A stretch of 64,000 bases of DNA from Oscillospiraceae bacterium (GCA_022800935.1 JAAWRH010000020.1:507-64506), one strand, 5' to 3'. Positions 16,251 to 44,182 are shown, counted from the stretch's first letter. The notes: generated from the sequence alone by a model not told the origin. Translations and numbers: made by a program.

Positions 16251-16288
16251 CTATAGGTTCCTTTCCGAAGAAAAATTTTTTTATCTGC

Positions 16289-16341
16289 ACAAAACAAAGA
16301 GAAGTTTAACTCTTTCATAGAAAAACTTCCCTTTGTTTTGT
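16289..16341. repeat. 18-bp inverted repeat (17/18 match) upstream of the lipoprotein gene
   Basis: ACAAAACAAAGAGAAGTT (16289-16306) versus AACTTCCCTTTGTTTTGT (16324-16341). Confidence 0.6.
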
Positions 16342-16700
16342 ACTAAGATTGTTTAAAATAGTCTGAGAGTTAAACTCAATCAGATATTTCTGTGTCAATT
16401 ACCATTGAACTGCTTTACAAGGATGGTTAATAACAGCCTGATAAACATTTTGCGTCTGCATCCAAGAAGTTTTGACATGTCATTGCCTTCACTATAACAA
16501 TCGAAAATTCACCCCAAAATACTACAAAAAATCCATAAAATTCTTCACAAGATTTCAAGCGAAAAATTAGTGTATTTTACCAAATATCATCCAATCTTCC
16601 TTTTCGGGCCGTCCTCTCTTCCCTGTTGTTACCGCCTTTTTCTCTTTTGTACAGCTTATTTTTTCAAACAAGGTCTGAAAAAATCAAGTTTGTTGTTCCA

Positions 16701-25100: not shown

Positions 25101-25141
25101 AAAAAAACAAGGCCTGGAACCTCGTCGAGAGGTTCCAGGCC
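25101..25141 (-). terminator. Rho-independent terminator closing the phage-like gene block
   Basis: 13-bp perfect stem GGCCTGGAACCTC / GAGGTTCCAGGCC. On the minus strand it is followed by TTTTTTT. Confidence 0.8.
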
Positions 25142-25164
25142 GTTGTGACCCGCTTGTTCAGAAA

Positions 25165-26280
25165 TCAGCCCTGATACTGCCTTAAAATCCAGTTCATCTG
25201 GCTGCCGTCCAAAATCCCCGCGTATTCCCTCTGCCAGCCGTCTATATCTCCGCTGGAGGCCAGGGACTCAAAGGCTTCGGAAAGCATCAGCTCCTCCTCC
25301 ACCTCCTTCATCAGGGAACGGCTTCTCTGCATGCTGTTTCTGGCTGTGATCTGGTCCATATCCTGCAAATGCTGCTGCCAGGAAAGGGCCTGCTGCTGTT
25401 CTGCCTTCATCCGCAGCAGTTCCTTCTGGTAATCCTGCTCCATCTGCTCCTTTTGCAGGTCCAGCGTAGCCTGGGCCTTCTGGATATCCCCACTGGCCTT
25501 GGCCTGGGTCATGGTGTTGTCGATTTCCGCCAGTTGGTTCATCCGGTCCCGCTGGATGTCGTTGCGGCTGCGCTCGTAGTTGGTGTACAGCCCCAGCAAA
25601 GCGGACTGGGCCATTCCCCCGCTCTGTCCGGCGGCGGAAAGGGTCTGAGGAAGGGCGTTCTCCGAGGACTTCAGGTTAATATACGCCTGCCGGGCGGCAT
25701 CGTCCGCCTGCTGGGTCACAGTGGATTTGGCGGCGTTAATCTGCCCCAGAAGGGCGTTTATCTGCGCGTCGATGAGGGCGTTCTGGGATTCCAGATACTT
25801 TTTGGTGTCCACGCCGGAGCCTGTGGACTCCGAGTAGGACGGCCTGGATGCCCTCAACGCCCCAATCCCCCCTCCGTAATAGGAGGAGCTGTAATCATCA
25901 TAGCGGGAGGACGTCTGTCTCTGTGTACCGGAGGAGCTTGCCTTTTTGACAACCACCCTCTTTGCCTTCGGGGCCGTGGTCTGGACAACGGGCTGAGCGG
26001 CCTTTTTAACCACTACCCTTTTCGCTGTTTTGGGGGCTGCCTGGACCGGGGCGGCGGCTTTTTTGACCACCACCCGCTTCGCCGTCTGTATGGGACTCTT
26101 TGCCGATGTGGTGCCGAACGAGTCGCTCCGGACCGCAACCCGCTTTGCGGCACTGCCTGTCTTTGATGTGTTGGAAACGCCCGCCCGGTTGACAACAACC
26201 GGCTTTGCCGCTGATACTGTACCCCGCGCCGCGGACGTATCTGTCTTTTTCTTGATTCTGATTGCCTTTGCTGCGGCCAT
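25165..26280 (-). CDS. Phage-like structural/accessory protein with Lys-rich tandem repeats and a coiled-coil C-terminal half
   Basis: Start MAAAKAIR (ATG 26280, RBS GGGAGG). About five degenerate repeats around AKRVVVKKA. The C-terminal 200 aa is Gln/Ala-rich and heptad-like. Confidence 0.6.
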   Translation of the reverse strand: MAAAKAIRIKKKTDTSAARGTVSAAKPVVVNRAGVSNTSKTGSAAKRVAVRSDSFGTTSAKSPIQTAKRVVVKKAAAPVQAAPKTAKRVVVKKAAQPVVQTTAPKAKRVVVKKASSSGTQRQTSSRYDDYSSSYYGGGIGALRASRPSYSESTGSGVDTKKYLESQNALIDAQINALLGQINAAKSTVTQQADDAARQAYINLKSSENALPQTLSAAGQSGGMAQSALLGLYTNYERSRNDIQRDRMNQLAEIDNTMTQAKASGDIQKAQATLDLQKEQMEQDYQKELLRMKAEQQQALSWQQHLQDMDQITARNSMQRSRSLMKEVEEELMLSEAFESLASSGDIDGWQREYAGILDGSQMNWILRQYQG

Positions 26281-26294
26281 ATGAAACCTCCCTC

Positions 26295-27071
26295 TTACAT
26301 TGCTTCGTCTTCCTGGAGCAGGGCGCGGAGCCCTGCCTCCAGTTCCTTGTATTTCTCTTCCCACTCCTGAGCCTCCCGGCGGAGGCGTTCCACCTCCTTG
26401 CGGAGGGCGGCCGCCGTATCCTCTTCCTCCGGTTCCGGCGGCTTCAGTCCGTTCAGGCCATACTTTTCCATGATGGAGGGATAATCCCGATAGGCCCGGT
26501 CCAGGTCGCAGGGGCCGGACACCCCGTCCACCCTCCCCTGGTCCCCCTTATATTGCCACATCCCCCACCGGTTCCCCGGCATGGTCCCCTGCCGCCAGTC
26601 GGCAATCCACCAGTCGAACCTGGTCAGCTCCTCCGGAAGCAGAAAGCTCTGCATCCAGCCGTAGCTGGTGTAGAGGGCGGCATAGTATCTCTTTTCCTCA
26701 ATCCGCTCCAAAAAGGCCCTGGCAATTTCCGTCAGCCGCGCCTTTCCAAGGCCCTGGAGGGAGGAATCCTCCATATCCAGCGCCACAGGATAGGTCATAC
26801 GGTACGGCCCGGCCATCTCCAGTAAGCTGTCAGCCGCCATACAGGCTGCCTGGGGCGTTTTGGCGTAGCTGTACAGGTATATCCCCACATTCAGCCCCGC
26901 CTTTCCCGCCTCCCGCATATTTTCGTCAAAGCGAGTGTCCTTCTGGATGGACCCGTCATACCCGCACCACCCGGCGCGGACCATGACAAAGGACTTTCCC
27001 GCTGCCCTGACCCGGTCAAAGTCAATGGTCCCGTTAAACTGGGACACGTCGATCCCTTCCCAGATTTCCAT
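26295..27071 (-). CDS. GH25 family muramidase (endolysin-like) with coiled-coil tail
   Basis: GIDVSQFNGTIDFDRVRAAGKSFVMVRAG...GIYLYSYA...WQYKGDQGRVDGVSGPCDLD is typical of GH25 lysozymes. No signal peptide. Confidence 0.85.
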   Translation of the reverse strand: MEIWEGIDVSQFNGTIDFDRVRAAGKSFVMVRAGWCGYDGSIQKDTRFDENMREAGKAGLNVGIYLYSYAKTPQAACMAADSLLEMAGPYRMTYPVALDMEDSSLQGLGKARLTEIARAFLERIEEKRYYAALYTSYGWMQSFLLPEELTRFDWWIADWRQGTMPGNRWGMWQYKGDQGRVDGVSGPCDLDRAYRDYPSIMEKYGLNGLKPPEPEEEDTAAALRKEVERLRREAQEWEEKYKELEAGLRALLQEDEAM

Positions 27072-27152
27072 GAAAATCCTCCTTTCTCACAATTCATACA
27101 GTGAATGGCACACAGTACATAAAATGACGCCCTGCCTGTCCACGGTTCCATT

Positions 27153-27872
27153 TCACTGGAACCGGGTGCATCTCACCGACCATCCCCCGGCAGGGCCCTC
27201 CGGCGTTTTGGGATGGTAAAAATACTCCAGCAGATAACAACTTCCCGCCGCCAGCACCGGTTTTTTCCCATCCGCGAACATGATGCCCTCTCCCCAGTCC
27301 GCCGACCCCTCCGGTCCGATGGACAGAAACCCCCGCATGGAGAGAAACCGGCCTCCCGCTCCCCCAGGGGGATTGAGCACCAGGGCCACGTCCGAATCCG
27401 CCGTCAGCGCGAAATCCGCCCCCGGCGCCGGTGTAAAGGAGCCCGCCGGGGCGGAGACGGATATCTTCTCCGCCAGCCTCCCCAGCTTCCGCTCCTCCTC
27501 CGAAATGTGGAGCTGGTCGCTGAGTCCGTGGGCCTCTATCTGCTCCCGGACGTGCCGGACCGTCGCCGGGTGGTAATCCTTCCGGGGTGTGTAGGGCGTC
27601 ACATTGTCCTTTTCCAGGACGTTAGCCTTCTCCGCCTTTTTGGGTATGGAATTGGAAAGCTCGTTTACCTTTGCCGCCAAGCGGGTGTTGTTGTCGTTCT
27701 GGGCGGTCGCTAGGCGGCTGATTGCGGGGGCCAGCACCTCTCTGGGCAGCTCGTCCAGAATTCGCTGCATCTCCTCCGGGGAAACCCCTGGGGGATTGGG
27801 CCTGCCCACATTCCCCTTTCCCTGCATATCCTGCTGGCTGACGCCGGTCAGCGCGGTCATTTGAATCGCCAT
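27153..27872 (-). CDS. Hypothetical phage-like protein
   Basis: 239-aa ORF with coding-like composition inside the phage-like block. Start MAIQMT with RBS AAAGGAG. No family recognised. Confidence 0.55.
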   Translation of the reverse strand: MAIQMTALTGVSQQDMQGKGNVGRPNPPGVSPEEMQRILDELPREVLAPAISRLATAQNDNNTRLAAKVNELSNSIPKKAEKANVLEKDNVTPYTPRKDYHPATVRHVREQIEAHGLSDQLHISEEERKLGRLAEKISVSAPAGSFTPAPGADFALTADSDVALVLNPPGGAGGRFLSMRGFLSIGPEGSADWGEGIMFADGKKPVLAAGSCYLLEYFYHPKTPEGPAGGWSVRCTRFQ

Positions 27873-27893
27873 AAAAAGTCTCCTTTCCAAAGG

Positions 27894-29759
27894 TCACTTC
27901 CGATAATCACTGGTCTCGGAAAACTCCACCGATACCTGGTACAGCCCAAAGGGCTCCTTCCGCTGGTCGTTGAGCAGCCGGAACCTGACCTTGTCATAGC
28001 CCCGCAGCCGTTTTTTCAGGGTAAAGGTCCTGGGGGAAGCATCGTTGTCATAGGTCAGCTTTCCATAGTCTAGCTGCCCGTAATCCCAGTACCTGGCCCG
28101 GAGCTGTTCCTGGTGGAGGGTCTCCCACCTTCCGGACACGTGGGCCATTATCTTCACGCCGGTGGCGGGGGAGCTGGCCAGCTGGAGGGAAAGCTTCCGG
28201 AAGGTCTTTTTGCGGAAGAAGTTCTTCCCGGAAAAGTCCGGAAGCTCCCAGTAGGCCGTGATAGGCTCCCCGTCGTCCTGGTAGGAGGAAATCTCCTCCG
28301 GGTCGCGGTAGAATTCCATGACCTTACCGTCCTTCCGCCCGAACCGCAGCGCCCCGTCCTGCTCCCAAAGCACCCTGGCCCCGATGTTCAGCCAGTAGTA
28401 CCCCTCATATTGATAGGTGCTGTAGGGGGCGTCCTTTTCATAGCTCTTGGAAAGCCCGTCCAGGATATATATTCTCTCTCCCACCGCCAGAAAGTAGAAG
28501 TCCCGGTAGACGGCCGCGCAGGCGTTTTCCAGCTCCGGCTCCGCCAGCAGAGCCTTGTTGAGGTAGAAGCTCCGGTTCTGGGCATACCGTTCCCCGGTCA
28601 CATCCGCGGGGGTGACGGCGTAGATTCCCAGCCGGGTCAAAAAGAGGGGCTCTCCGGAAAGGTAGGCAAAGGCGGCGGTGGAAACCGCACCCTGTCCCTG
28701 CAAAACGCCGGTGACGGGGAAGGAGGCGGACCCGTTGGCAAGCTCGCCCCGCCGCAGAAAGATATTGCGTCCGTCCTCTCCCCGGTCCTTGTGGGCGGCA
28801 AGGGAGCTGCTGATGACAGAATACCCCATAATTCTGCCGCTCTCCTGCCCCAGGGAGGAAAACCAGATGTCCCCGAAAAAGCTGGGGTCATTCTGCTGGC
28901 TGTACCAGTCCCGGTTGGGCCAGGCGTCGTTTCCGCTGACAAACAGCCGGTCGGAAGCGCCGCCCACGCCGTACAGCACCCCGAAGCGGCATCCCTCGAT
29001 GGGGCAGGCGCTCAGCTTCCGGGAAGCGCGAATTTTCACGTTGTCCCGCCCGCTCACTGGGGAGGCCCCCGGCGCGGTGATAAAGTTGACCACCCCGCTG
29101 GTGCGGTTGACCGAAAACTTCTCCCCCTCCTTCCACTTTTCCCAGCTGCCGCTGGTCTGTAGAACCTCCACCTCCACAGGGGTATCGTCCAGATTGCCCG
29201 CCGAAAGCTGATAGGCGGTCACACCCGACTGGCCCAGGAAATCCTCCTCCCACCTTGGCTGGAGGAGGTTAAAGGGCTCCAGGGAAACGCCCCCACCGGT
29301 GGGGTCGCGGGAGATCAGCACCGTGGGCACATACGCCTCCTCCCGCACCGGCCTGCAAACCCAGCCCCCGTTTTGGCGGTAGAGGACAAGGTAGTGCTCC
29401 CCGTCCAAAAAGTAGAGCTTTTTGTTCAGCTGAACGGCATAGCTGCGGGTATCCGCCGCCCCCTCGTAGATTTTCACCCCGTCCTCGGAATAAAGAGCGG
29501 TCCCCCCGTGGATAACGGCAAAGCTCTCCCCCTGCCCCCACAGGGAAAAACACCCGTTGATGCGCCCCGGAAACCGGCGCACCAGATGGTAGCCGCAGCG
29601 CTTGCGCACCTTGCCGGGCACGTCCCGTATCATGTTGGGGGCATCGGGACTGCGGTTGAGGGAGACGTTGGCCGGGGCGTTGTGCAGGTCCACCCCCTTG
29701 AATTCGGAGATAGTGGTCCGGCTGCGGGCCGTACCGGCCGGGACAGAAAAATATGCCAA
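27894..29759 (-). CDS. Phage-like large structural protein (tail/nozzle candidate by size and position)
   Basis: 621 aa, beta-rich repetitive pattern (…LYFLDGEHYLVLY…, …FYFLAVGERIYILDG…). It follows the capsid gene and a ~200-aa adaptor-sized gene, as in podovirus modules. The assignment is positional only. Confidence 0.55.
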   Translation of the reverse strand: MAYFSVPAGTARSRTTISEFKGVDLHNAPANVSLNRSPDAPNMIRDVPGKVRKRCGYHLVRRFPGRINGCFSLWGQGESFAVIHGGTALYSEDGVKIYEGAADTRSYAVQLNKKLYFLDGEHYLVLYRQNGGWVCRPVREEAYVPTVLISRDPTGGGVSLEPFNLLQPRWEEDFLGQSGVTAYQLSAGNLDDTPVEVEVLQTSGSWEKWKEGEKFSVNRTSGVVNFITAPGASPVSGRDNVKIRASRKLSACPIEGCRFGVLYGVGGASDRLFVSGNDAWPNRDWYSQQNDPSFFGDIWFSSLGQESGRIMGYSVISSSLAAHKDRGEDGRNIFLRRGELANGSASFPVTGVLQGQGAVSTAAFAYLSGEPLFLTRLGIYAVTPADVTGERYAQNRSFYLNKALLAEPELENACAAVYRDFYFLAVGERIYILDGLSKSYEKDAPYSTYQYEGYYWLNIGARVLWEQDGALRFGRKDGKVMEFYRDPEEISSYQDDGEPITAYWELPDFSGKNFFRKKTFRKLSLQLASSPATGVKIMAHVSGRWETLHQEQLRARYWDYGQLDYGKLTYDNDASPRTFTLKKRLRGYDKVRFRLLNDQRKEPFGLYQVSVEFSETSDYRK

Positions 29760-29806
29760 ATGAAGCTCCTCCTCTCACAGAAAATTTCTCGCTGTACGGC
29801 CCCCGC

Positions 29807-30427
29807 TCAAATCCACCCGCTGACCGAGGTGAATTCCCGGCCGTTGTCGTCGTTGTAAAACGAGGCCAGCAGCCCTCTCCCCGCCTCAAACTCGTTGCGG
29901 TACTGGGTGGCGATGGCCAGGTCGTCGTCCTTGTAAAGCTGGCTGGCCGCGTAAAGGGGAATCAGCCGGGCGGCCTCCGGGGGCAGGGCGATCTCCTCCT
30001 CGTCCCCCGTCCTTGCGTCCACCCACTTGGGATAAACCTGGTAGTAAAGCACCCATACCCCTTCCCGGCTTCCGTCCAGCCAGACAGAGGCTTCCCCCTC
30101 CATCCGGTATCCTCCGCTCTGCCGCAGGCGGGGTCCCCCTCCCGCCGGGGCGAAGTATATCTCCCCAGGCAGCAGGCGGAGGAAATCCCCGTCCAGCTCC
30201 TTCAGGTTCCGGAACAGGAGGGGATCGCTCCCCTCCCTCGGCTCAACCGGGATATCCATCCGGCGCACCAGCGGCTTTCCGGCGGTGGAAAGCAATGCCA
30301 GCGCCTCGTTGACCGCCCCAGGCAGGGCGGTGAGGAAGGCCCTGGTGCTGTCGTCCTCCACAATTCTCTCCCCCTCCATGGCGAATACCTTTTGCAGGCA
30401 GAGCGCCTTCAGTTCGCCGTAGGTCAT
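29807..30427 (-). CDS. Phage-like head-tail adaptor-sized protein
   Basis: 206 aa directly after the capsid gene. Alternative GTG start at 30436 overlaps the capsid stop. The assignment is positional. Confidence 0.5.
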   Translation of the reverse strand: MTYGELKALCLQKVFAMEGERIVEDDSTRAFLTALPGAVNEALALLSTAGKPLVRRMDIPVEPREGSDPLLFRNLKELDGDFLRLLPGEIYFAPAGGGPRLRQSGGYRMEGEASVWLDGSREGVWVLYYQVYPKWVDARTGDEEEIALPPEAARLIPLYAASQLYKDDDLAIATQYRNEFEAGRGLLASFYNDDNGREFTSVSGWI

Positions 30428-30432
30428 ACGCC

Positions 30433-31455
30433 TCACCCCGCTGCGCCGGTACCGGCGGCAATCAGCTGCGTCCCCCCGGTCACGCCGCCGATGCAGATGG
30501 CTCTCCAGTTGTTGAACCCCGCGGAAAACCGGGCGCGGCCGTTCCAGACATTGTTGTCGTTGTTCTCGTCCACCCAGGAGTGAACGGAAAGGGGAATGCG
30601 GTCAATCCACACCAACCCGGCGCGGCTGTTGTTATACCGGCTGTCCAGCAGGAACCAGGGCTTTTCCGCGTCGGTGACGCGGGTCAGGTAGGGCCACACG
30701 ATGACGTTCCACCGGCCATACTGGTAGTTAAAGCCGTTGTTGGCGGTGGCGGGGTCCTTGTCCGCGCCGATGGCGGCGAAGACATCCCGCTTGAGGGTGT
30801 AGTCGTTGGGGATGATGATGGTGTCCGGGGCGATGTTCAGCACAAAGCCGTTGTCGTCCTTGAAATTCTGCATGGCGGTTTCCGCCGCGGACAGGGCGTC
30901 CAGGGAAAACGCATCGGCAAAGCGGTTGCTCTGGGCGGAGGTCCCGCTGGTGATGGAGGGGTGCTCCTTGGAAAACAGGGGCCGCCCGTCGGCGCAGGAG
31001 GTGTCATAGGTCTTGGAGGCAAAGGTCATCTTGGTGTTCACGCCCCCCGCCAGCATAGCCCCCGCGAAAAGCTCCCTGGTGCGGTTGTAGCTGTCGGTAA
31101 AGCCCAGGGCCTGCTGGGAAATTTCCAGCATCTTGTTGTCCTCCACCATCTCCTTGGTGATGGAAAACTGGCTCTTCCAGGTGTCCGGCTCCACGGTTTT
31201 GGAATACCCCTCCTGGATGGAGGCCTTGGGATAGACCCCGCCCTCCCCTACGGGGGAGAAGTTCCCCATGCTGGTGCGGGAGGTGATCTTCTCCGCAAAG
31301 TTGTGGGACTGGACCTTTTTAAACAGCTTTGGGATGGCGCTCATCTGCTCGAAGGCCTCCACATCCCGCTCCAGCAGCATCTGGATGGGCTCCTGGCTCT
31401 TGCCGAAGAACGAGTCGTTCAGTCCGCTTGCCTTGGAAAATACAACGTCTGCCAT
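30433..31455 (-). CDS. Phage major capsid protein (HK97-fold, Mu gpT-like pattern)
   Basis: 340 aa. The segment SMGNFSPVGEGGVYPKASIQEGYSKTVEPDTWKSQFSITKEMVEDNKM resembles the gpT-type capsid signature (…KFES.V.V.R.DIEDD…). Preceded by an acidic scaffold-like gene. Confidence 0.6.
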   Translation of the reverse strand: MADVVFSKASGLNDSFFGKSQEPIQMLLERDVEAFEQMSAIPKLFKKVQSHNFAEKITSRTSMGNFSPVGEGGVYPKASIQEGYSKTVEPDTWKSQFSITKEMVEDNKMLEISQQALGFTDSYNRTRELFAGAMLAGGVNTKMTFASKTYDTSCADGRPLFSKEHPSITSGTSAQSNRFADAFSLDALSAAETAMQNFKDDNGFVLNIAPDTIIIPNDYTLKRDVFAAIGADKDPATANNGFNYQYGRWNVIVWPYLTRVTDAEKPWFLLDSRYNNSRAGLVWIDRIPLSVHSWVDENNDNNVWNGRARFSAGFNNWRAICIGGVTGGTQLIAAGTGAAG

Positions 31456-31492
31456 AAAATAAAACTCCTTTCGTCACCGCCTGTTCAGGCGG

Positions 31493-32089
31493 TTATTTTT
31501 TTCTCTTTGCCCGGTGATAGTGGGCGCGGATATCCTGTTCGGGCACATTGGGGTTGAGGGCGCGGTACCACTGGAACACGCTGCCGGGCACCGGCGGGTC
31601 GTCCAGGGCTCCCCCTGCCGCGGGCAGAAGGTGGGCCCTCCCCGCCAGGGAGCTGACAGCGGCCTGCCATGCCGCCTCCCTTTGCCGGGCCAGAATGTCC
31701 TCCAGGTTGACCAGCAGAAAGGCGTCGGAAAGCCCCAGCCCCACAGGGCGTATCCTCTGCCAAAGGGCAAGGGTGTCCGCTCCCCCCTTCATGCGGGCCA
31801 CGGCGCTCAGCCCTTCCTCCCGCAGGCTCTCCGGGTTCTCAATGTCCGGGAAGCGGTCCAGCAGCTCCTCAATCTGCCGCAGAATCTCCCGTTCCGCCTC
31901 CTCCCATTCGCCAGGCTGCTCCTCATCCTCATATTCCTCCTCTTCATAGAGCTCCTCCGGCTGATCGGCCTCGTCCTCCTCCGGCTGGGCAAGCTGTCTC
32001 TGGCGCAGACGGTCCAGCAGCATCTCCTGGAAGGAGCTGTAGCCGTGCCTGCGGGCAAATTCCTCCAATTTGGGGTTTGACCTGTTCAT
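31493..32089 (-). CDS. Scaffolding-like acidic protein
   Basis: 198 aa with the run EEDEADQPEELYEEEEYEDEEQPGEWEEAE. Lies between the portal and capsid genes. Confidence 0.45.
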   Translation of the reverse strand: MNRSNPKLEEFARRHGYSSFQEMLLDRLRQRQLAQPEEDEADQPEELYEEEEYEDEEQPGEWEEAEREILRQIEELLDRFPDIENPESLREEGLSAVARMKGGADTLALWQRIRPVGLGLSDAFLLVNLEDILARQREAAWQAAVSSLAGRAHLLPAAGGALDDPPVPGSVFQWYRALNPNVPEQDIRAHYHRAKRKK

Positions 32090-32116
32090 TGCAATTCTCC
32101 CTTCTTTCGTTCCACA

Positions 32117-32146
32117 GCCTGCGGGCCGTGCCCGGCCCGCAGGCTC
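32117..32146. other. 12-bp perfect GC-rich hairpin between small ORF and scaffold gene
   Basis: GCCTGCGGGCCG-TGCC-CGGCCCGCAGGC. No U-tract on either strand. Confidence 0.7.
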
Positions 32147-32149
32147 CTC

Positions 32150-32320
32150 TCATTTCTTCGGCTTCCGTTCCGCCCGCGGACCGCGGGCGCGCAGGTCCCC
32201 GCCGGTCTTCACCGCTGGGGCTCCCTTGGGCGCGGTGGGAACCGGCGCCTGGACATACTGGGCCCCCGTGTTCCCGATGCGCCCGATGTAGTCGCTTTTG
32301 CTGTCACTGCGTACTGACAT
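32150..32320 (-). CDS. Small basic protein (56 aa), below the ORF-track cutoff
   Basis: My translation is MSVRSDSKSDYIGRIGNTGAQYVQAPVPTAPKGAPAVKTGGDLRARGPRAERKPKK. RBS GGAGAAAGGAG upstream. Confidence 0.35.
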   Translation of the reverse strand: MSVRSDSKSDYIGRIGNTGAQYVQAPVPTAPKGAPAVKTGGDLRARGPRAERKPKK

Positions 32321-32371
32321 TCTGCATTTTCTCCTTTCTCCAATCCCGGCTTGCCGGGTGTTTTTTACGGA

Positions 32372-32551
32372 TTACTTCAGCTGATTCCGGACCTTCTGCA
32401 CCGGCTGTTCAAAGCTGGCGCACTGGGGGTTGCGGCATTGCAGCTCCTGCACATAGAACACTTCTGTCTTTTCTTCCGGCGACTGGTCGCCGGTCACCTC
32501 CACATACCCCCTCTGGATGCGCAGGGTACAGCCGCACAGGGGACAAACCAT
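32372..32551 (-). CDS. Small zinc-ribbon protein (59 aa), below the ORF-track cutoff
   Basis: My translation is MVCPLCGCTLRIQRGYVEVTGDQSPEEKTEVFYVQELQCRNPQCASFEQPVQKVRNQLK, with CxxC ... CxxxxC. The ATG begins 1 nt after the portal TAG. Confidence 0.5.
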   Translation of the reverse strand: MVCPLCGCTLRIQRGYVEVTGDQSPEEKTEVFYVQELQCRNPQCASFEQPVQKVRNQLK

Positions 32552-32552
32552 C

Positions 32553-34301
32553 CTATTCCACCTCCTTTCCCTGCTGCTCCTTCATCTGTGCCTCCAGCCT
32601 TGCCTTCATCTGGGAGGCCAAGGGGTAGCTCAGCCCCTCCATCACCTCCCAGAACATCAGCAGGGAGGGCAGGGACCCCGGCTCCCCAAAGGCGCCGTCC
32701 CGGTAGTTCACCCGCGTCTCCTGCCACATGGCCTCCCGGTTGTTGGCCAAAGTCCCGGCGGCATCGGTGCTGAACAGATACCCGTCGTTGTAAAACCACT
32801 GCCCCGCCGCGTCCTGCTCCAAAAAGTCGTACTTGCTGAAGGTGCGGTACTCCGGGGAGCCGTGGATGTCCCTGCTCCGCACCGGTCTGGGCTCGTCGGC
32901 GCAGCAGAGCAGCATCTGGAACATCAGCTGGAACAACTCCCCATAGGCGGCCTGCTTCATCACCCGCTTGCTCTCCAGCCGTCCAGCAGTCTGGTTGGCG
33001 GAAAACTCCTTGGCCCTGCCGCTGACGGCGGTGCTGTCCTCCTTGCCCTGGAAGCTGTCGCTGATGCCCAAGGTGGACTTGGCCCAAAGGTAGTTCTGCT
33101 CCAGCATGGCCATATCCCGGCTCACGTCCGGCTGGACGTTGACCACGTCAATCATGGCCTTCTGGTCCGGCCCGTCCAGCTCAATGACCTTCAGCTCCTC
33201 GTCGGTGCGGCGGATCATCTTTCCCCTGGGCAGCAGTACAAAGGACCCTCCCTTCAGCAGCTTCTCCTCAATTTTGGTGGTCAGCTTTTTCACCGCGTTC
33301 TGCTGGTCCTCCAGCGCCTCCACGTCGGAGTTCCCCAGAAACCGCCCGTAAACGGAGACGTTTTTCCGCACCACCACCGGGTAGCGGTTCATCCGGTAGT
33401 AGGGAATGCGGGTCCGGGTCTTCTTTTCCCTCTTTCCCGTGTACAGGGGGATAACCGAGCCGTCCGCCCGAAGAATGTCGGAACCCAGGGTCTCCCACTC
33501 CTCAATCCCCTCCCGGAAGTCCGCGCACCCGCAGGCGCAGGTCTTTTCCCTGCCCAACCGGGGCCTTCCGCAGGCGGAGCAGCGCTCCAGCCTTCTGGCC
33601 AGGAAATCCTCCAGGTCCTCCAGCAGTTGATCCCCTGTCCAGCTGATTCTCCCGATCCCCCTCTCCCCCCGGTAATACCCGGTCACCACCGTCACCAGCT
33701 CCTGTCCGTCGGAACCGTCAGGGTACTCTCCGGCGGCGTCCCCAGCCCATACCTCCACGCCGAACCGGCGGCGGACCGCCTCGCGGGACTGGGAGGATTC
33801 CAGAAAGAAGTAATCCATCTCCTGCACCTCCGCCACGCCGGGCTGGGGAATAAACTGCCTGGGATGTATCAGCCGGACGGAGAGCTCCCCCACCGCCCGG
33901 TGTCCCGTCTGGGAGCCGTCCCACTCCACCAGCATGATGGAGCCGCCCTGAATAAAGGTAGTCCGCTCCTGCTGGTCATTGAGCACCTCAAAAGGGAGCC
34001 GGTCCAGCTCGTTTCGCAGCTTGTCCTCAACGCTCCGGGCATTGTCCTGGTTCTGGGGGGATACCGCCGTCACCTTTGGCTGGGGGATTATGCTGCTGAT
34101 CTGGCTTTCCACCAGCTCAAAGGCCAGGTTGCGGACGTTGGTGGCGTCCTTCTGGGCGATGGAGCCGGTGGGCGTCCTGATTTCCTTGTCCCCCAGGTAC
34201 AGCTTTTCCCGGCGGTCCATCGCCTCCCGTTCGGCGCTGTACGCGGACCTGGCCCTTTCGTATTTGTCCTGCCAGCAGGCGAGCCGGCCGGACAGGTCCA
34301 T
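32553..34301 (-). CDS. Phage portal-like protein with internal Cys-rich insertion
   Basis: About 582 aa from MDLSGRLACWQDKYERA (a TTG at 34313 is an alternative start; RBS AAAGGAG). First and largest gene of the block and upstream of scaffold and capsid. Contains CSACGRPRLGREKTCACGC. The ORF-track N-terminal extension to 34532 runs through promoter-like AT-rich DNA. Confidence 0.6.
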   Translation of the reverse strand: MDLSGRLACWQDKYERARSAYSAEREAMDRREKLYLGDKEIRTPTGSIAQKDATNVRNLAFELVESQISSIIPQPKVTAVSPQNQDNARSVEDKLRNELDRLPFEVLNDQQERTTFIQGGSIMLVEWDGSQTGHRAVGELSVRLIHPRQFIPQPGVAEVQEMDYFFLESSQSREAVRRRFGVEVWAGDAAGEYPDGSDGQELVTVVTGYYRGERGIGRISWTGDQLLEDLEDFLARRLERCSACGRPRLGREKTCACGCADFREGIEEWETLGSDILRADGSVIPLYTGKREKKTRTRIPYYRMNRYPVVVRKNVSVYGRFLGNSDVEALEDQQNAVKKLTTKIEEKLLKGGSFVLLPRGKMIRRTDEELKVIELDGPDQKAMIDVVNVQPDVSRDMAMLEQNYLWAKSTLGISDSFQGKEDSTAVSGRAKEFSANQTAGRLESKRVMKQAAYGELFQLMFQMLLCCADEPRPVRSRDIHGSPEYRTFSKYDFLEQDAAGQWFYNDGYLFSTDAAGTLANNREAMWQETRVNYRDGAFGEPGSLPSLLMFWEVMEGLSYPLASQMKARLEAQMKEQQGKEVE

Positions 34302-34428
34302 TTCCTGTTTCAACTTTTCTCTGCTCCTTTCGTCTGTAAGAGGCTGTCCCAGAGATTTGGAACAGTCATTTGGGGGATAAATTTTTTTCTCTGTCACCTC
34401 CCCTGTGCCTTTATTATAGTTTCTCTTT

Positions 34429-34446
34429 TTCGGAAATTTCGGAAAT
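34429..34446. repeat. Perfect tandem 9-mer TTCGGAAAT x2 in the 5' leader of the phage-like block
   Basis: Read directly: TTCGGAAATTTCGGAAAT, which contains the palindrome GAAATTTC. Confidence 0.9.
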
Positions 34447-34515
34447 ATTTCTCTTTTCGAGATTTTTATAAATGCAAAAAAAGCGCTCTGTCTACTTGCG
34501 CTTTGACCTTTCATA

Positions 34516-34524
34516 TGATATAAT
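34516..34524 (+). promoter_or_regulatory. Extended -10 promoter element facing the sortase operon
   Basis: TGaTATAAT. The nearby TTGACC is only 10 nt upstream, so it is not a usable -35. Confidence 0.35.
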
Positions 34525-34531
34525 ACAGACA

Positions 34532-34560
34532 ATCATATTGCTTTTTTGATGAATTGACAA
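34532..34560 (-). promoter_or_regulatory. Sigma70-type promoter for the phage-like block
   Basis: On the minus strand: TTGTCA, 17-nt spacer, TATGAT. Confidence 0.45.
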
Positions 34561-35603: not shown

Positions 35604-36632
35604 ATGAAAAACTGGAAAAAAACAACCCTGATTGCGGTTCTGACCCTCTGCCTGCTGGCAGGCTGCGCCCCTGCTGCTGCGAATACGGAACTCGATCTGT
35701 CCGCCTCCTATACGGAACAGGCTTCGGACGGGGAAATTGATCTGTCCACCGTCTACACCAACCAGGTGACGCTGGAAAATGTGGTCCTGGAGGACGAAAT
35801 GGTCCCCCTTGCCGCCTCTGCTGCGGTTGATACCATGCTGCTTCCCACCGCCTCCGGCAAAAAGGTGAAGTCCGACGGCGGCGCGGAAATCGACTATTCC
35901 AACACCGGGGACGGATATGTCATGGCCCGTGTTTCCTCTAAAAGCGGCCCCCGCCTGAAAGTCCAGGTGCTGGGTCCCACCACCACCTATACCTACGATC
36001 TGCCCCGCGGCTCCTGGGCGGTGTTCCCCCTCTCCGACGGCAACGGCAACTATACCGTCCGGGTGATGCAGAACGTCCAGGGCTCCAAATACGGGATGCT
36101 TACCTCGGTCAACTTCACCCTCAAGCTGAAGGATGAGTTCGCCCCCTTCCTACGCCCCAACCAGTACGTCAACTACGACGGAGCCGATAATACCATCAGC
36201 AAGGCCCAGGAGCTCACCGGCAGTCTGTCCAACCCCTTGGACAAGGTGCAGGCGGTCTACGATTACGTTGTCGGCAACCTGACCTATGACCAGCAAAAGG
36301 CCCAGACCGTTCAAAGCGGCTATCTGCCCGACCTAGATTCCGTTTTGGCCAATAAAACCGGCATCTGTTTCGACTATGCCGCCCTCATGACCGGAATGCT
36401 CCGCAGCCAGGGTGTTCCCACCAAGCTGGTGGTCGGCTACGCGGGCCAGGCCTACCACGCCTGGGTAAACGTCTGGACAGAGGAAACTGGCTGGGTTGAC
36501 GGCGTCATCTTCTTCGACGGGACTACCTGGCAGAGGATGGACCCCACCTTTGCCTCCTCCGGCAACGGGAGCGACGCCATTATGCAGTATATCGGCAACG
36601 GTAAAAATTACACCGTCAAATACCTCTACTAG
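35604..36632 (+). CDS. Transglutaminase-like cysteine protease-fold lipoprotein
   Basis: Lipobox LCLLAGC. Core GICFDYAALMTGMLRSQGVPTKLVVGY...YHAWVNVW...WQRMDPT gives a Cys-His-Asp triad. Confidence 0.85.
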   Translation: MKNWKKTTLIAVLTLCLLAGCAPAAANTELDLSASYTEQASDGEIDLSTVYTNQVTLENVVLEDEMVPLAASAAVDTMLLPTASGKKVKSDGGAEIDYSNTGDGYVMARVSSKSGPRLKVQVLGPTTTYTYDLPRGSWAVFPLSDGNGNYTVRVMQNVQGSKYGMLTSVNFTLKLKDEFAPFLRPNQYVNYDGADNTISKAQELTGSLSNPLDKVQAVYDYVVGNLTYDQQKAQTVQSGYLPDLDSVLANKTGICFDYAALMTGMLRSQGVPTKLVVGYAGQAYHAWVNVWTEETGWVDGVIFFDGTTWQRMDPTFASSGNGSDAIMQYIGNGKNYTVKYLY

Positions 36633-36642
36633 GAGACGCTTT

Positions 36643-37677
36643 ATGAAACAGATTCTATCCAATGAAGATATCTCTCTCTTTTGCCAGGAGCTGGCCCTCC
36701 TTCTCCACGCGGGGGTGGGAACCGGCGACGCCCTGGCCCTCCTCGCCGAGGAGGAAAAGGAGAAGGACGGAGGATTTCTCACCGCCTTAGCTGAACAGGT
36801 GGATGCTGGTTCGTCCCTGGGGGACGCCCTCAGCCAAAGCGGGGCTTTCCCCCCCTATCTTTGCGGCCTTGTCTCGGTGGGCGAAAAAACCGGCCGCACC
36901 GAGGAAGCCCTTGCCGCCCTGTCCGATTATTACGAGCAGCGGGTCCGCCTCAACCGCCGGATTCGCTCCGCCCTTCTCTATCCCGCTGTCATGCTGGCCC
37001 TGATGCTGGTGGTGATTGGGATACTGCTCATCAAGGTGCTGCCGATTTTCGACGACGTCTACGCCAGCCTGGGCGGGCGGCTCACCGGCGTGGCCGGGGG
37101 GTTGCTGGCCCTGGGCCGTGGCCTGGAGCGCGCCCTTCCGGTCCTCTGGATTCTGCTGGCCGCCGCTGTCCTCTTTGCCCTGCTCTTCACCTTTGTCAAA
37201 CCGCTCCGCGCCAAGCTCACCCTCTGGTGGCAGGAAAAGCACGGGGATAAGGGGATATCCCGCAAGCTCAATAACGCCCGCCTGGCCCAGGCCATGGCCA
37301 TGGGAATGGCCAGCGGCCTCCCGGTAGAGGAAGCCGTCACTCTCTCCGCCAACCTGATGGAGGGAGGGGCCAAGCGCCGCTGTCTGGACTGTGGGGAACG
37401 GCTGGAAAAGGGTGAAGCCCTCAGCGAGGCGCTCAATCAAAGCGGCCTCCTTCCCCCCCGCCAGTGCCGCATCCTGGAGCTGGGCCAACGGGGAGGCGTT
37501 GCCGACACCTCCATGGCAAAAATCGCCCAGGAGCTTATGGAAGAGGGGGAAACCGCCCTGGACGCCATGGTCAGCCGGGTGGAGCCCGCTCTGGTGCTGG
37601 TCTGCTCCCTGCTGGTGGGGCTCATCCTCCTTTCGGTTATGCTGCCGCTGATGAACATCATGGCGGCTATCGGGTGA
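36643..37677 (+). CDS. GspF/PilC-family platform protein
   Basis: 344 aa with two T2SSF-like repeats (LSQSGAFPPYLCGLVSVGEKTGRTEEAL and LNQSGLLPPRQCRILELGQRGGVADTSM) and 3 TM segments. Start MKQILS (ATG 36643). Confidence 0.85.
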   Translation: MKQILSNEDISLFCQELALLLHAGVGTGDALALLAEEEKEKDGGFLTALAEQVDAGSSLGDALSQSGAFPPYLCGLVSVGEKTGRTEEALAALSDYYEQRVRLNRRIRSALLYPAVMLALMLVVIGILLIKVLPIFDDVYASLGGRLTGVAGGLLALGRGLERALPVLWILLAAAVLFALLFTFVKPLRAKLTLWWQEKHGDKGISRKLNNARLAQAMAMGMASGLPVEEAVTLSANLMEGGAKRRCLDCGERLEKGEALSEALNQSGLLPPRQCRILELGQRGGVADTSMAKIAQELMEEGETALDAMVSRVEPALVLVCSLLVGLILLSVMLPLMNIMAAIG

Positions 37678-37686
37678 TGTGCTGAT

Positions 37687-38007
37687 ATGAAGAGAAGAAG
37701 AAAATGGAACCTGGGAATGTTTGCCTGGTTGCTCCCGCTGGTATTTGTCATCGCAGCGGTCTGCTTTGCCACTGCCCTGGACAGTCTGGACCAGGGGCGG
37801 GAGGCGGAGAGCGTCCGTCAGCTGGAGCAGACGCTGCGCCGGGGCTGTGTGGCCTGCTACGCCGCCGAGGGATTCTATCCCCCTGACCTGGAATACCTGG
37901 AGGAACATTATGGGATACAGATCGAGGATTCCGGCTATATCGTCCGGTATATGACCTTTGGAGAAAACCTCATGCCGGATATTACTGTATTGGAGAGAAC
38001 GCAATGA
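37687..38007 (+). CDS. Small membrane-anchored pilin-like protein 1
   Basis: MKRRRKWNLG|MFAWLLPLVFVIAAVCFATAL: basic N-terminus, Gly, then about 20 hydrophobic residues. No Glu at +5. Confidence 0.5.
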   Translation: MKRRRKWNLGMFAWLLPLVFVIAAVCFATALDSLDQGREAESVRQLEQTLRRGCVACYAAEGFYPPDLEYLEEHYGIQIEDSGYIVRYMTFGENLMPDITVLERTQ

Positions 38008-38489
38008 AAGGACAACCAAGACAGCATCGCATGGACGGCCTGCTGGCCCTTCTGCTGTTCGCCGTTTTTGCGGCCTGCATTCTGGCGGTACTGCTCAGCG
38101 GCGCGGGGGCCTACCGGCGGCTGGTGGACCGGGATCAGGGGGCTTACGACAGCCGCACCTGCATCCAGTACATCGCCACCCGTGTCCGCCAGTCGGATAT
38201 TGCGGGCAGCGTGGAGGTCGTTTCCTTCCAGGGAACCAATGCCCTGGCGCTGGAGGAGTCCACCGGCTATGTCACCCGCGTCTACTGGTACGACGGCTAT
38301 CTCATGGAGCTGTACGCCGCCGCGGACAGCGACCTTGCCCCGGAGGACGGGGTAAAGCTCCTGGAATCGGAGCCCGTGGATTTCTCCCTGGAGGACGGTC
38401 TCCTGACCGTTAAGATTGACGGCGGCAGCGCGGGAAAGGTTCTCTGTCTTTCCCTGCGCACAGAAGAAGGGAGGACGGTACCGGCATGA
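38004..38489 (+). CDS. Small membrane-anchored pilin-like protein 2
   Basis: MKGQPRQHRMDG|LLALLLFAVFAACILAVLL. 4-nt overlap with the neighbouring genes. Confidence 0.5.
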   Translation: MKGQPRQHRMDGLLALLLFAVFAACILAVLLSGAGAYRRLVDRDQGAYDSRTCIQYIATRVRQSDIAGSVEVVSFQGTNALALEESTGYVTRVYWYDGYLMELYAAADSDLAPEDGVKLLESEPVDFSLEDGLLTVKIDGGSAGKVLCLSLRTEEGRTVPA

Positions 38490-38911
38490 AAAGCAAAGCA
38501 CCTCTCCTGCTCATGGAGCAGATGATTATGCTGCTGGTATTCGCCCTTGCTGCGGCGCTCTGCCTGCAATCCTTTACCTATTCCGACCGCCTTTCCCGCC
38601 GGGGGGAGGCCAGGGATACAGCCGCCACCCTGTCCCAAACCGCCGCCGAGACAGTACGCCATCAGGGTGGAACGCCGGAGGAGGCGTTGTCCGCCGCCGC
38701 GGCCGCACTGGGGGGGACCTTTGACGGCGAAGCCCTTAAGGCGGGTTATGACCAGGAAGGAAATCCCGGCGGAGAGGAATTTCTCCTCACCGTCCGCCCT
38801 GTTTCCACCGATGTTCCCGGCCTTGCCAAGGTTTCGGTCCAGGTGGAATGGGGCCGGGAAATTCTGTTTGAAATCGATACCGCTTGGCAGGAGGTGACGG
38901 TGACAGGATGA
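38486..38911 (+). CDS. Small membrane-anchored pilin-like protein 3 (only one with a Glu at a +5-like position)
   Basis: MKSKAP|LLLMEQMIMLLVFALAAALCL. Confidence 0.5.
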   Translation: MKSKAPLLLMEQMIMLLVFALAAALCLQSFTYSDRLSRRGEARDTAATLSQTAAETVRHQGGTPEEALSAAAAALGGTFDGEALKAGYDQEGNPGGEEFLLTVRPVSTDVPGLAKVSVQVEWGREILFEIDTAWQEVTVTG

Positions 38912-39330
38912 GTCAGAATCAGGATAAAAAAGAGCGGTTCTCCGCCCCTGCCACAGGGGGAATCTCCCTGCTGGTGGCCTTTGCGGTGCTGTGTCTGACG
39001 GTATTCGCCCTGCTGGGGCTGTCCACCGTCCGGGCCGACGACCGCTTGGCGGACTCCGCCATCGGCTCTATCGCGGAATACTATGCGGCTGACTGCGACG
39101 CCCAGGAGATTCTGGCCCGTCTGAGGGCCGGAGAACTGCCGGAGGGCGTCAGCGTAGACGGGAATCTGTATTTCTATTCCTGCCCCATTTCGGATACCCG
39201 AAAGCTGGAGGCAGAGGTTATCATAGACGGAACTGCCTTTACCATCCTGCGCTGGCAGGCTGTCCCCGCGACCCCTTGGGAAGCGGATGAAACCCTGGAC
39301 CTGTGGGACGGATCGGGGACCACGTTCTGA
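38908..39330 (+). CDS. Small membrane-anchored pilin-like protein 4
   Basis: MSQNQDKKERFSAPATGG|ISLLVAFAVLCLTVFALLGL. ATGA overlap with the previous gene. Confidence 0.5.
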   Translation: MSQNQDKKERFSAPATGGISLLVAFAVLCLTVFALLGLSTVRADDRLADSAIGSIAEYYAADCDAQEILARLRAGELPEGVSVDGNLYFYSCPISDTRKLEAEVIIDGTAFTILRWQAVPATPWEADETLDLWDGSGTTF

Positions 39331-39348
39331 CGAAAAAGGAGTATACTC

Positions 39349-40407
39349 ATGGCAGAATTATTGGATTACCTAAAGCGTTCGGTGGCCGACGAGGCTTCCG
39401 ACCTGTTTATCATCGCGGGCGGTCCTGTTTGCGAAAAGCTGGAAAAGCGCCTCTGTGCCATCAGCGAGGACCGGCTCTCTCCGGCCCAGACGGAGCAGCT
39501 TATTATGGACATCTACAAAATGGCCACCCGCTCCCCTGACCGGTATCTGGAGCGGGGAGACGACGACTTTTCCCTTTCGGTGCCGGGGCTGGCCCGCTTC
39601 CGCGTCAACGCCTACCGCCAGAGGGGTTCCATGGCGGCAGTGGTCAGGATTGTTGCCTTTGACATTCCGGACTGGAAGGACCTCCAGATTCCCCAGCAGG
39701 TCATTGACCTTTCAGAGGTACACCATGGCCTCATTCTGGTAACGGGCACGGCGGGCAGCGGCAAATCCACCACCCAGGCGTGCATCCTCAACCAGATCAA
39801 CCAAAAGCGGGAATGTCACATCATCACCCTGGAGGACCCCATAGAATATCTGCACCGGAACAACCGCAGCATTGTCAGCCAGCGGGAGATATCCATTGAC
39901 ACAGAAAATTATGCTTCCGCCCTCCGCGCCTGCCTGCGTCAGGCCCCGGACGTCATCCTCCTGGGGGAGATGCGGGACCCGGAGACCATCCACACCGCCA
40001 TGACGGCGGCGGAGACCGGCCATCTGCTGATAGCTACCCTGCACACCAAGGGGGCGGTCAACACCATCGACCGCATTGTTGACACCTTCCCCAGCGGCCA
40101 GCAGGACCAGATACGGGTACAGCTGAGTATGGTACTGCACACGGTGGTATCCCAGCAGCTGCTCCCTGGCACGGACGGCAACCTGTACCCAGCCTTTGAG
40201 CTGATGCACATGAACAGCGCCATCCGCAGCATGATACGGGACAGCAAGACCCATCAGATTGACAACGCCATAGCGGCGGGCAGCGCCGAGGGGATGATAT
40301 CCATGGACCAGTCCATCCTGGCCCTGTACCAAAAGGGAAAGATATCCAAGGACGTGGCCCTTTCCTCTGCCGTCAGCCCGGAGCAGATGAAGCGGAGAAT
40401 GGGTTAA
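39349..40407 (+). CDS. pilT: PilT-type (retraction-class) type IV pilus ATPase
   Basis: 352 aa. Walker A GTAGSGKST, ITLEDPIEYLH, VILLGEMRDPETI, AAETGHLLIATLHT, and the PilT-specific AIRSMIRDSK (AIRNLIRE-like) motif. Confidence 0.88.
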   Translation: MAELLDYLKRSVADEASDLFIIAGGPVCEKLEKRLCAISEDRLSPAQTEQLIMDIYKMATRSPDRYLERGDDDFSLSVPGLARFRVNAYRQRGSMAAVVRIVAFDIPDWKDLQIPQQVIDLSEVHHGLILVTGTAGSGKSTTQACILNQINQKRECHIITLEDPIEYLHRNNRSIVSQREISIDTENYASALRACLRQAPDVILLGEMRDPETIHTAMTAAETGHLLIATLHTKGAVNTIDRIVDTFPSGQQDQIRVQLSMVLHTVVSQQLLPGTDGNLYPAFELMHMNSAIRSMIRDSKTHQIDNAIAAGSAEGMISMDQSILALYQKGKISKDVALSSAVSPEQMKRRMG

Positions 40408-41200: not shown

Positions 41201-41204
41201 CGCT

Positions 41205-43453: not shown

Positions 43454-43466
43454 CTGAACATCTTTG

Positions 43467-44147: not shown

Positions 44148-44182
44148 CACAGGACGGGACACGCCCGCCGCCTCCAGGCCCT

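Follow-up and report, generated by a model that had tools for sequence, protein, structure and literature searches.

A terminase-less, podovirus-derived gene block in gut Oscillospiraceae, a candidate domesticated particle locus

For a long time, hardly any gene transfer agents (GTAs) were known outside the Alphaproteobacteria. GTA-like packaging was then reported, in 2026, to be the commonest kind of bacterial-DNA encapsidation in human gut viromes, mainly in Ruminococcaceae and Oscillospiraceae, and genes were identified for Faecalibacterium only (PMC12946183). The GTA of Faecalibacterium prausnitzii, FpGTA, is podovirus-like, is encoded at two loci and packages 8.4-8.9 kb of DNA, as shown experimentally (PMC12946183, Nat Commun 2026). 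GTA-like packaging was also seen in Oscillospiraceae, although no genes were assigned to it (PMC12946183). BhGTA (VSH-1) of Brachyspira hyodysenteriae has a putative single-copy, conserved terL that lies outside its 16.3-kb head-tail-lysis cluster (PMC9662315). Here we describe a block of ten phage-like genes in a 64-kb stretch of DNA (the window; positions are counted from its first nucleotide) from an Oscillospiraceae bacterium (GCA_022800935.1, JAAWRH010000020.1:507-64506). As judged from sequence, the block appears to be a terminase-less, single-operon, podovirus-derived locus for a domesticated particle in gut Oscillospiraceae. All sequences compared here are metagenome-assembled genomes (MAGs) or metagenome contigs.

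The block is like FpGTA in host order (Oscillospirales), in gut habitat and in overall plan. Each is a phage-derived operon that measures about 10 kb, has about ten open reading frames (ORFs) and encodes portal, scaffold, major capsid and short-tailed-phage proteins, each is without replication and integration genes, and each is near-ubiquitous in its host clade. FpGTA is also split over more than one locus, as we propose below for the system that would include the block. However, operon I of FpGTA opens with terS-terL and the block has neither; with the portal gene first and no terS-terL, the block was rejected as an FpGTA-type operon as defined. The tail fibre, holin and endolysin of FpGTA are encoded in its second locus, whereas a fibre-like protein and a muramidase are encoded within the operon described here. 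Lastly, FpGTA particles have been observed, whereas the block is known here from genes alone.

BhGTA, like the block, has a head-tail-lysis cluster without an internal terminase, and the BhGTA cluster co-diversifies with its host (PMC9662315). The two differ in that BhGTA has a siphovirus-like long tail, a 16.3-kb cluster and a host from another phylum. In addition, BhGTA genes are almost without phage homologues, whereas phage relatives of the block number in the thousands (35-53% identity), and an external terL is putative for BhGTA but hypothetical for the block. The late operons of P22-like and SU10-like phages share with the block the gene order from the portal on, the nozzle fold, the adaptor and portal families, and a scaffold without a protease. 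The block differs from these operons in having no terminase, no tailspike and no identifiable ejection set, except possibly its last gene (g10), and in being chromosomal, non-mobile and host-like in composition.

Phage satellites such as phage-inducible chromosomal islands (PICIs) encode an integrase, replication genes, regulators and usually terS, have att sites and spread horizontally. None of the satellite hallmarks (integrase plus att, a replication module, a helper-responsive regulator, terS or size-redirection genes) was found at the block, and a phage satellite (PICI, capsid-forming PICI or P4-like) was rejected because these hallmarks are absent. Capsid-forming PICIs resemble the block as small elements that have their own portal, capsid and connector and rely on functions supplied in trans, but the block is without integrase, att, replication genes, regulators and terS, and it has its own tail. 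PBSX-type defective prophages and tailocins are domesticated phage-derived particles whose production costs the lysis of the cell, and the block may be like them in this respect and perhaps also in encoding a bacteriocin rather than a vector. PBSX differs in its contractile tail and in that it has terminase genes. Capsid and portal are wholly missing from tailocins; the block has capsid, portal and scaffold genes and was rejected as a tailocin on that ground.

The block and its terminase-less clade

The block consists of ten co-directional ORFs on the minus strand (25165-34313), and spans 25111-34443 from promoter to terminator. Gaps between the ORFs are -4 to 81 nt, and a clear Shine-Dalgarno sequence precedes nine of the ten starts. 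An intrinsic terminator (25111-25141, minus strand), with a 13-bp stem that has 9 GC pairs and is followed by TTGTTTTTTT, closes the operon; no comparably strong minus-strand terminator was found inside the block. In one other lineage (L020), an equivalent hairpin and T-run follow g10. The GC content of the block and its GC content at third codon positions (GC3) are those of the flanking host genes, which include sortase and transglutaminase genes on one side and barstar and gamma-glutamyltransferase genes on the other. No tRNA gene was found in the window, and no flanking direct (att-like) repeats were found around the block. An earlier, sequence-only reading of the window had described ten tightly packed minus-strand genes, a strong intrinsic terminator, host-like composition, ordinary host neighbours (the srtB operon; barstar/ggt) and borders without att-like repeats. 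All of these descriptions hold: the ten ORFs are at their reported positions, the terminator has its stem and T-run, composition and gene content of the flanks agree, and the repeat search came back empty.

The genes for packaging DNA are missing from the block. Profiles of TerL and TerS, built from 67 and 11 relatives, respectively, gave no match at E≤10 in a six-frame translation of the 64-kb window or in the loci of the clade described below. No integrase, replication or repressor gene was found in the block or within 10 kb of it in any lineage. The portal gene is the first gene and lies directly behind the promoter, with no terS-terL ahead of it. The sequence-only reading had reported that terminase, integrase, repressor and replication genes are lacking, and these results bear this out.

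Relatives of the block fall into two groups. Gut metagenomes contain thousands of homologues of the portal and likewise of the nozzle, and in both cases their identity to the window proteins falls in steps, from 100% to ~80% and 64-71%, followed by a gap to at most 53%. The distant group (at most 53% identity) is one of ordinary phages and prophages. For example, a gut-virome scaffold (L002) has the order terS-terL-portal-scaffold-capsid-adaptor-nozzle, another (L001) has an integrase after the tail gene at its end, and in an Anaerotignum prophage (L045) the portal gene is preceded by replication genes, terS and terL. A terL gene ends directly before the portal gene in 60 of the 76 GTDB loci whose portal identity is at most 50%, and we therefore take terS-terL-portal to be the ancestral order. 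Loci with a portal identity of 69-100% all carry the block, all have host genes upstream, and none has terS or terL. They form a clade of at least seven lineages (the window species; L018; L019 with L021; L020; L191; L014-L017 with L022; and L190), from MAGs of the mouse gut and other guts. A portal tree (neighbour-joining, as for all trees here) recovers the clade as monophyletic in 100 of 100 bootstrap replicates. Host genes lie on both sides of the block in 10 strains of the window species and in six other lineages, and the block is thus not part of a larger prophage, a possibility that had been left for checking. No Faecalibacterium locus was found among the 80 best of the 111 portal relatives.

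The genes of the block are maintained by selection. All ten are intact in every lineage in which the contig covers them, apart from the nozzle gene of L022. The ratio of non-synonymous to synonymous substitution rates (dN/dS, or omega; Nei-Gojobori) in pairwise comparisons between lineages is 0.01-0.3 for all ten genes, where dS is at or near saturation for most pairs and many omega values are upper-bound style estimates. In the close pair L019-L021, both without terminase, dS is 0.5-0.8 and omega is 0.006-0.066. The capsid, portal and scaffold genes are the most conserved of the block. Ten strains of the window species are 99.6-100% identical across the block, and the 60 polymorphic sites comprise 42 synonymous, 17 non-synonymous and 1 intergenic, a ratio of non-synonymous to synonymous polymorphism of ~0.13. 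No stop or frameshift was found among these ten strains, and the single indel is in the T-run of the terminator. The capsid gene (g05) has 15 synonymous and 0 non-synonymous single-nucleotide polymorphisms within the species. The collection searched has 162 blocks in which the exact capsid protein is indexed, and all 10 of the 10 places inspected have the same context. The flanking host genes diverge similarly to the block (gamma-glutamyltransferase, 82% amino-acid identity; NERD-domain protein, 56-69%). A sporadic, frameshifted remnant, which the sequence-only reading had named as a finding that would undo its proposal, is not what related genomes contain: the ten genes are intact, dN/dS is low and variation within the species is mostly synonymous.

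Two terminase-less blocks were found outside the clade. The first, in a Clostridia MAG from goat rectum (L056, 9899-18355; JAFSIR010000025.1), is a more divergent head-tail block with a portal 47% identical to that of the window. Genes for Fe-ADH, an aldolase, a serine dehydratase and EamA lie upstream, a MarR gene lies downstream, and a gene for a PG_binding plus M15 peptidase protein is inserted after the portal gene. It is sister to the clade in 70 of 100 neighbour-joining bootstrap replicates and domestication may thus be older than the clade or may have recurred. The second, in an Oscillospiraceae MAG (L023, 9938-19785; EPI_MAG_00114), has a portal 50% and a capsid 61% identical to those of the window, lies directly after methyl-accepting chemotaxis and Mn-catalase genes, lacks a lysin gene, encodes a fibre of 603 aa and does not group as sister to the clade in the tree. 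Separately, three related loci (L039, 9416-9973; L043, 801-1361; L059, 9394-9948) have an ORF of ~185 aa between terL and the portal gene that matches the catalytic domain only of Phage_integrase.

Predicted gene products and promoter

The portal, scaffold, HK97-fold capsid, adaptor and nozzle genes are in the order of P22-like podoviruses. The first gene (g01, 32553-34313; all ten genes are on the minus strand) encodes a portal of the P22-type family (phrog_156 portal, 3.4e-43), and its homologues bear precomputed PF16510 matches. A TTG start with an AAAGGAG Shine-Dalgarno sequence gives a protein of 586 aa; the next ATG gives 582 aa. dN/dS of g01 is 0.03-0.2. The portal has an internal CxxC...CxC zinc-ribbon insertion at residues ~245-262 (window 33540-33600). 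This insertion is present in 86 of 89 family members in an alignment of portals from 89 loci, some of which have long extra insertions, and it is ruled out as a novelty of the clade since it is family-wide in podoviruses of gut Clostridia. The next two genes encode small proteins. g02 (32372-32551) encodes a 59-aa zinc-ribbon protein with two CxxC pairs and is kept in all lineages of the clade and in several terL-carrying relatives (dN/dS 0.01-0.3). g03 (32150-32320) encodes a 56-aa basic protein with a conserved YIGRIxNxGxQ motif and a Lys/Arg-rich C-terminus (phrog_30605, 1.4e-9), and is widespread in relatives (dN/dS 0.06-0.3).

The scaffold and capsid genes follow. g04 (31493-32089), between the portal and capsid genes, encodes an acidic scaffolding-like protein of 198 aa. 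Its last 80 aa match phrog_35275, a family to which the corresponding 377-aa protein of L023 also belongs (1e-24). Corresponding proteins in phage relatives are 277-377 aa long, and g04 is thus 70-180 residues shorter; we speculate that a shortened scaffold would fit a smaller head. g05 (30433-31455) encodes a major capsid protein of 340 aa, HK97/Mu gpT-like (Phage_capsid_4, 6.1e-18; Mu-like_gpT, 1.3e-11; phrog_371, 2e-26), and its match to Phage_capsid_4 exceeds the Pfam cut-off for the family. It is 87-96% identical across lineages (dN/dS 0.006-0.09). The portal and capsid had been assigned in the sequence-only reading, and both assignments pass profile searches (phrog_156 and Phage_capsid_4). 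g06 (29807-30436), between the capsid and nozzle genes, encodes the head-to-tail adaptor (209/206 aa). Its own match to Pfam SU10_adaptor is weak (0.023), and 5 of 11 aligned homologues match that family, the best at 5e-9.

The product of g07 (27894-29759) is a podovirus tail nozzle or hub of 621 aa, rich in beta-propeller structure (phrog_3287 virion structural protein, 1.7e-39). This assignment is made because the modelled fold matches podovirus tail structures. An AlphaFold2 model built from 34 homologues (pLDDT 87, pTM 0.85) was compared with the PDB in Foldseek, and it matched tail or portal-tail structures of P22 (gp10), T7 (gp12), Sf6, SU10, VP1 and cyanophages (E 1e-19 to 1e-12, probability 1.0). 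The protein is also ~30% identical to a virion protein of the Page group of Bacillus phages. Sequence searches against the PDB with the portal, the capsid and profiles of the adaptor, nozzle and g10 gave nothing useful.

g08 (27153-27872) encodes a tail protein of 239 aa that, from its position and modularity, is inferred to be a fibre or needle. Only residues ~15-55, an N-terminal anchor, are common with the wider family (65-78% identity); full-length homologues are confined to the clade, and the C-terminal beta domain is specific to it. An AlphaFold2 model (pLDDT 70) has a helix at residues 32-89 and the beta domain at 150-239, and a fold search with this model found no significant structural neighbour. 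g09 (26295-27071) encodes a GH25 muramidase of 258 aa (Glyco_hydro_25, 5.5e-25; endolysin PHROGs, up to 7.7e-36) with a C-terminal coiled coil, kept in four lineages, and without a cell-wall-binding domain. The role of g09 is ambiguous, either an endolysin or a virion-associated enzyme, because most lineages are without a holin, yet the L014 lineage, alone among them, has a PF05105 holin gene after the GH25 gene. None of the ten proteins has a transmembrane-like segment (the maximum Kyte-Doolittle 19-residue mean is 1.39), in line with the earlier claim that they have no holin-like segment, and none was found in small minus-strand ORFs. g10 (25165-26280) encodes a 371-aa protein with N-terminal Lys/Arg-rich repeats (KRVVVKKA, three to four times) and a Gln-rich coiled-coil core. 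The basic repeats are present in the window, L018 and L020 and not in L014. The core (residues ~160-310) is found in 639 representative proteins at E≤1e-3, none of them annotated, and 1 of 40 members of the family has a weak match to a PHROG for a pilot protein for DNA ejection. A homologue sits downstream of the tail genes in a terL-carrying viral contig (L099). Our guess is that g10 is an ejection or internal protein.

A conserved promoter (34413-34443, minus strand) lies upstream of the portal gene. It consists of a direct repeat, TCCGAA-N3-TCCGAAA, a 9-nt spacer and a TATAAT (the -10, at 34413-34418), and it has no acceptable -35 hexamer. The motif has one match in the window, where 0 are expected, and is found upstream of the portal gene in every lineage of the clade even though synonymous sites are saturated; in the aligned upstream regions, ~70 nt are nearly invariant across lineages. 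Because there is no good -35 hexamer, a trans-acting activator or alternative sigma factor is implied, and the promoter probably depends on such a factor. A small palindrome, TCTCGAAAAGAGA (34450-34462, minus strand), is just upstream of the promoter and is unique in the window. It is kept as TCTCRAAAAGAGA in the window (WIN), L018, L019, L020 and L021 and partly in L014 and L191, and is a possible operator. The sequence-only reading had placed a sigma70-like promoter at 34532-34560 (minus strand; TTGTCA-17-TATGAT). The match to consensus, 10 of 12, stands, but the stretch is not conserved in other lineages, and this site is probably not the main promoter; the match may be fortuitous or may mark a secondary promoter specific to the species.

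The leader, too, contains a conserved sequence. GGAGGTG, which is Shine-Dalgarno-like, occurs ~15 nt past the -10 (window 34385-34400) and also in L018-L021 and L191. In most lineages it is well upstream of the portal start, and L020 has a TTG in frame behind it. A first gene, since lost, may have left it as a relic ribosome-binding site, or it may be an element of the leader. No riboswitch or other Rfam element was found when the leader was searched.

IMG/VR and a metagenome collection were scanned for the promoter motif (TCCGAA-N3-TCCGAAA-N8-12-TATAAT, with weight-matrix scoring). The motif is absent from the ~70 terL-carrying relatives examined. An extended match occurs in unrelated low-GC phage contigs from human gut (L106, 1542-1572, minus strand; also L111, L113, L143, L151, L154, L167, L182 and L183), where it lies exactly between a 138-aa ORF and terS. 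The 138-aa ORF has weak sigma70-region-4/DUF722 similarity, and no homologue of it was found in the window or the loci. These matches suggest that the motif of the block is of a late-promoter type and that a class of late promoter and activator is shared with low-GC phages, which is a lead and not proof. One contig with both the motif and a Shine-Dalgarno sequence (L155, GC 0.56) was considered as a second locus of the system and rejected; it belongs to an unrelated element, which has a small recombinase and a Rep-like ORF.

Competing explanations for the block

The sequence-only reading had offered two possibilities, a decayed podovirus stump and a domesticated particle module. Selection, intactness and the conserved promoter lead us to reject the first, and the second, that the block is a domesticated phage-derived particle locus (a viriform) and not a decaying prophage, is supported. 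With moderate confidence, we read the block more specifically as the particle locus of a GTA-like viriform, with a terminase and an activator supplied from elsewhere in the genome. It is chromosomal, vertically inherited, under purifying selection, host-like and non-autonomous, as a GTA would be so far as can be read from sequence. Shared flanking context, partial synteny, flank divergence close to that of the block and host-like GC3 speak for vertical inheritance. That particles are produced at all is something that we infer from the genes.

We postulate the following history and mechanism. The block would have begun as the late operon, for structure and lysis, of a temperate podovirus that was P22-like and infected gut Clostridia. 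The packaging genes, terS and terL, were lost precisely, in the common ancestor of one Oscillospiraceae clade, and the genes upstream of them (lysogeny and replication) would have gone as well; from then on the block would have been inherited with the chromosome and kept by selection. In some cells, an activator or alternative sigma factor encoded elsewhere would fire the -35-less promoter. Portal, scaffold and capsid would form a procapsid, possibly a small one given the short scaffold, and the adaptor, nozzle and fibre would assemble on the portal vertex. The GH25 muramidase may aid release or penetration of the cell wall. Finally, a terminase from another locus would fill the heads with host DNA, as proposed for BhGTA/VSH-1.

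Several observations weigh against a GTA-like viriform. The terminase expected of a GTA is missing locally (from the 64-kb window and the clade loci, at E≤10), and as terL was found neither in the 64 kb of the window nor, in any lineage, within 10 kb of the block, the proposal leans on an unobserved gene. The scan for the promoter motif found no second locus that carries it; its matches were the block's own promoter (L147, L156), the late region of low-GC phages and apparent chance matches. The promoter itself resembles a phage late promoter, and a phage factor fits it as well as a host factor does. Most lineages are without a holin, which leaves the route of release unexplained. The upstream neighbours (srtB, MatE, NERD, Dus/tRNA-Thr, Mem_trans, peptidase C39) differ in almost every lineage, which could mean mobility and not vertical descent alone. 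In L022 (UBA1405; 14837-16727), the nozzle gene is frameshifted in one 2017-era MAG, although the cause may be a mistake in the assembly or a loss in that strain. Lastly, the sequences are all from MAGs or metagenome contigs.

We consider it very improbable that the block is an ordinary decaying prophage remnant that is still intact by chance. Every function for autonomous propagation is absent, and rearranged or partial remnants of the same phage family do exist (e.g., L025). The L022 frameshift would also fit such a remnant, but the species of L022 has four further contigs, and in these the nozzle gene is intact. A remnant is difficult to reconcile with the same ten genes and boundaries in at least seven lineages past synonymous saturation (dN/dS 0.01-0.3), with the low polymorphism ratio within the window species (~0.13) and no disruption in its 10 strains, or with a promoter that is conserved across lineages. 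Purifying selection, intact genes and identical boundaries thus rule out a neutral remnant, and they also make independent recent captures unlikely, against which the shared terminase-less boundary and the clade-specific promoter argue as well. A different proposal, which we regard as unlikely, is that the block depends on a helper: it would be silent until the late activator of a related phage fires its promoter, and the terminase of that phage would fill procapsids made by the block. The outcome would be either that host DNA is transduced or that the helper is hindered, in the manner of PICI-like parasitism or defence but without mobility. In the gut phage contigs, the -35-less promoter type lies upstream of terS and after the sigma70-region-4/DUF722-like ORF, as this proposal would lead one to expect, no activator or terminase is encoded near the block, and related terL-carrying phages are abundant in the same habitats. 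However, those of the relatives that were examined (~70) all lack the motif, and the low-GC phages that have it are unlikely to infect a host of 60% GC. In addition, an integrase, a replication module, att, terS and a capsid-size redirection gene are all absent, and defence by interference would not obviously need selection on all ten genes, including those for the tail and the lysin.

It is also possible, although we are doubtful, that the block encodes a podovirus-derived particle for killing or delivery that carries no DNA, a "headed tailocin", in which head, portal and scaffold are kept as a chassis for tail assembly. The head genes would be kept without a terminase because a podovirus tail assembles only on a portal vertex. 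The tail would act as a bacteriocin or as a device that attacks proteins or the cell wall. The clade-specific domain of the fibre would target cells, and the muramidase and an ejection-type protein would damage or penetrate them. Such a particle would account for a terminase that is gone without remnant in every lineage while head and tail genes are under purifying selection, and for a C-terminal fibre domain that is both clade-specific and conserved. The muramidase, with a coiled-coil tail, no wall-binding domain and mostly no accompanying holin, also fits a virion-associated hydrolase. Killing without DNA delivery by PBSX-type particles is an accepted concept (PMC12946183), which favours a DNA-free particle here. 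On the other hand, basic proteins that look DNA-associated (g03 and the N-terminus of g10) are retained, and the holin beside GH25 in the L014 lineage is the arrangement of an ordinary endolysin. Moreover, the tails of P22-like phages normally attach after DNA packaging, and we know of no bacteriocin that bears a capsid and has no terminase.

If the block is a particle locus, it is a concrete and conserved candidate in an Oscillospiraceae clade, with a defined promoter motif. If these genomes have no terminase, it would be of an undescribed type, a selectively kept capsid-plus-tail particle that is unable to package DNA canonically. A headed, DNA-free particle, if true, would give tailocins their first podovirus-derived counterpart, and it would represent a class of phage domestication apart from both GTAs and tailocins. 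Under either a GTA-like or a DNA-free reading, loss of the terminase need not end in decay, and the block would be a natural example of how a podovirus late operon is rewired after domestication.

Neighbouring genes

The upstream neighbour of the portal gene is a sortase B gene in the window species, MatE in L018, a NERD-domain protein gene in L019, L020 and L021, Dus and tRNA-Thr in L191, recA-recX-...-Mem_trans in L014 and a C39-like peptidase gene in L190. A tRNA adjoins the block in one lineage only (L191). Downstream, barstar-ggt is common to the window and L018. The NERD orthologue of the window is 9 kb upstream of the block, and a pilus-like operon and an ABC module lie between them.

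The pilus-like operon (36496-40407, plus strand) has genes for T2SSF, small pseudopilin-like proteins (including DUF4860) and a T2SSE ATPase, as in type IV pilus or competence operons. It adjoins the sortase B and transglutaminase genes directly upstream of the block in the window species only. DNA-uptake pili are relevant to recipients of GTAs; the adjacency of this operon and the block is not conserved. Farther upstream are two unannotated genes of lower GC (40472-43486 and 43467-44258, both minus strand) which, together with an ABC ATPase gene, separate the NERD-domain gene from the block.

Islands of low GC (0.36-0.45, compared with ~0.60) are found in the window at 8001-9000, 15001-17000 and 41001-42000. 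They are probably recent horizontal acquisitions with no tie to the block. For example, a gene for a 417-aa DUF5711-like lipoprotein (14997-16250) has a GC3 of 0.33.

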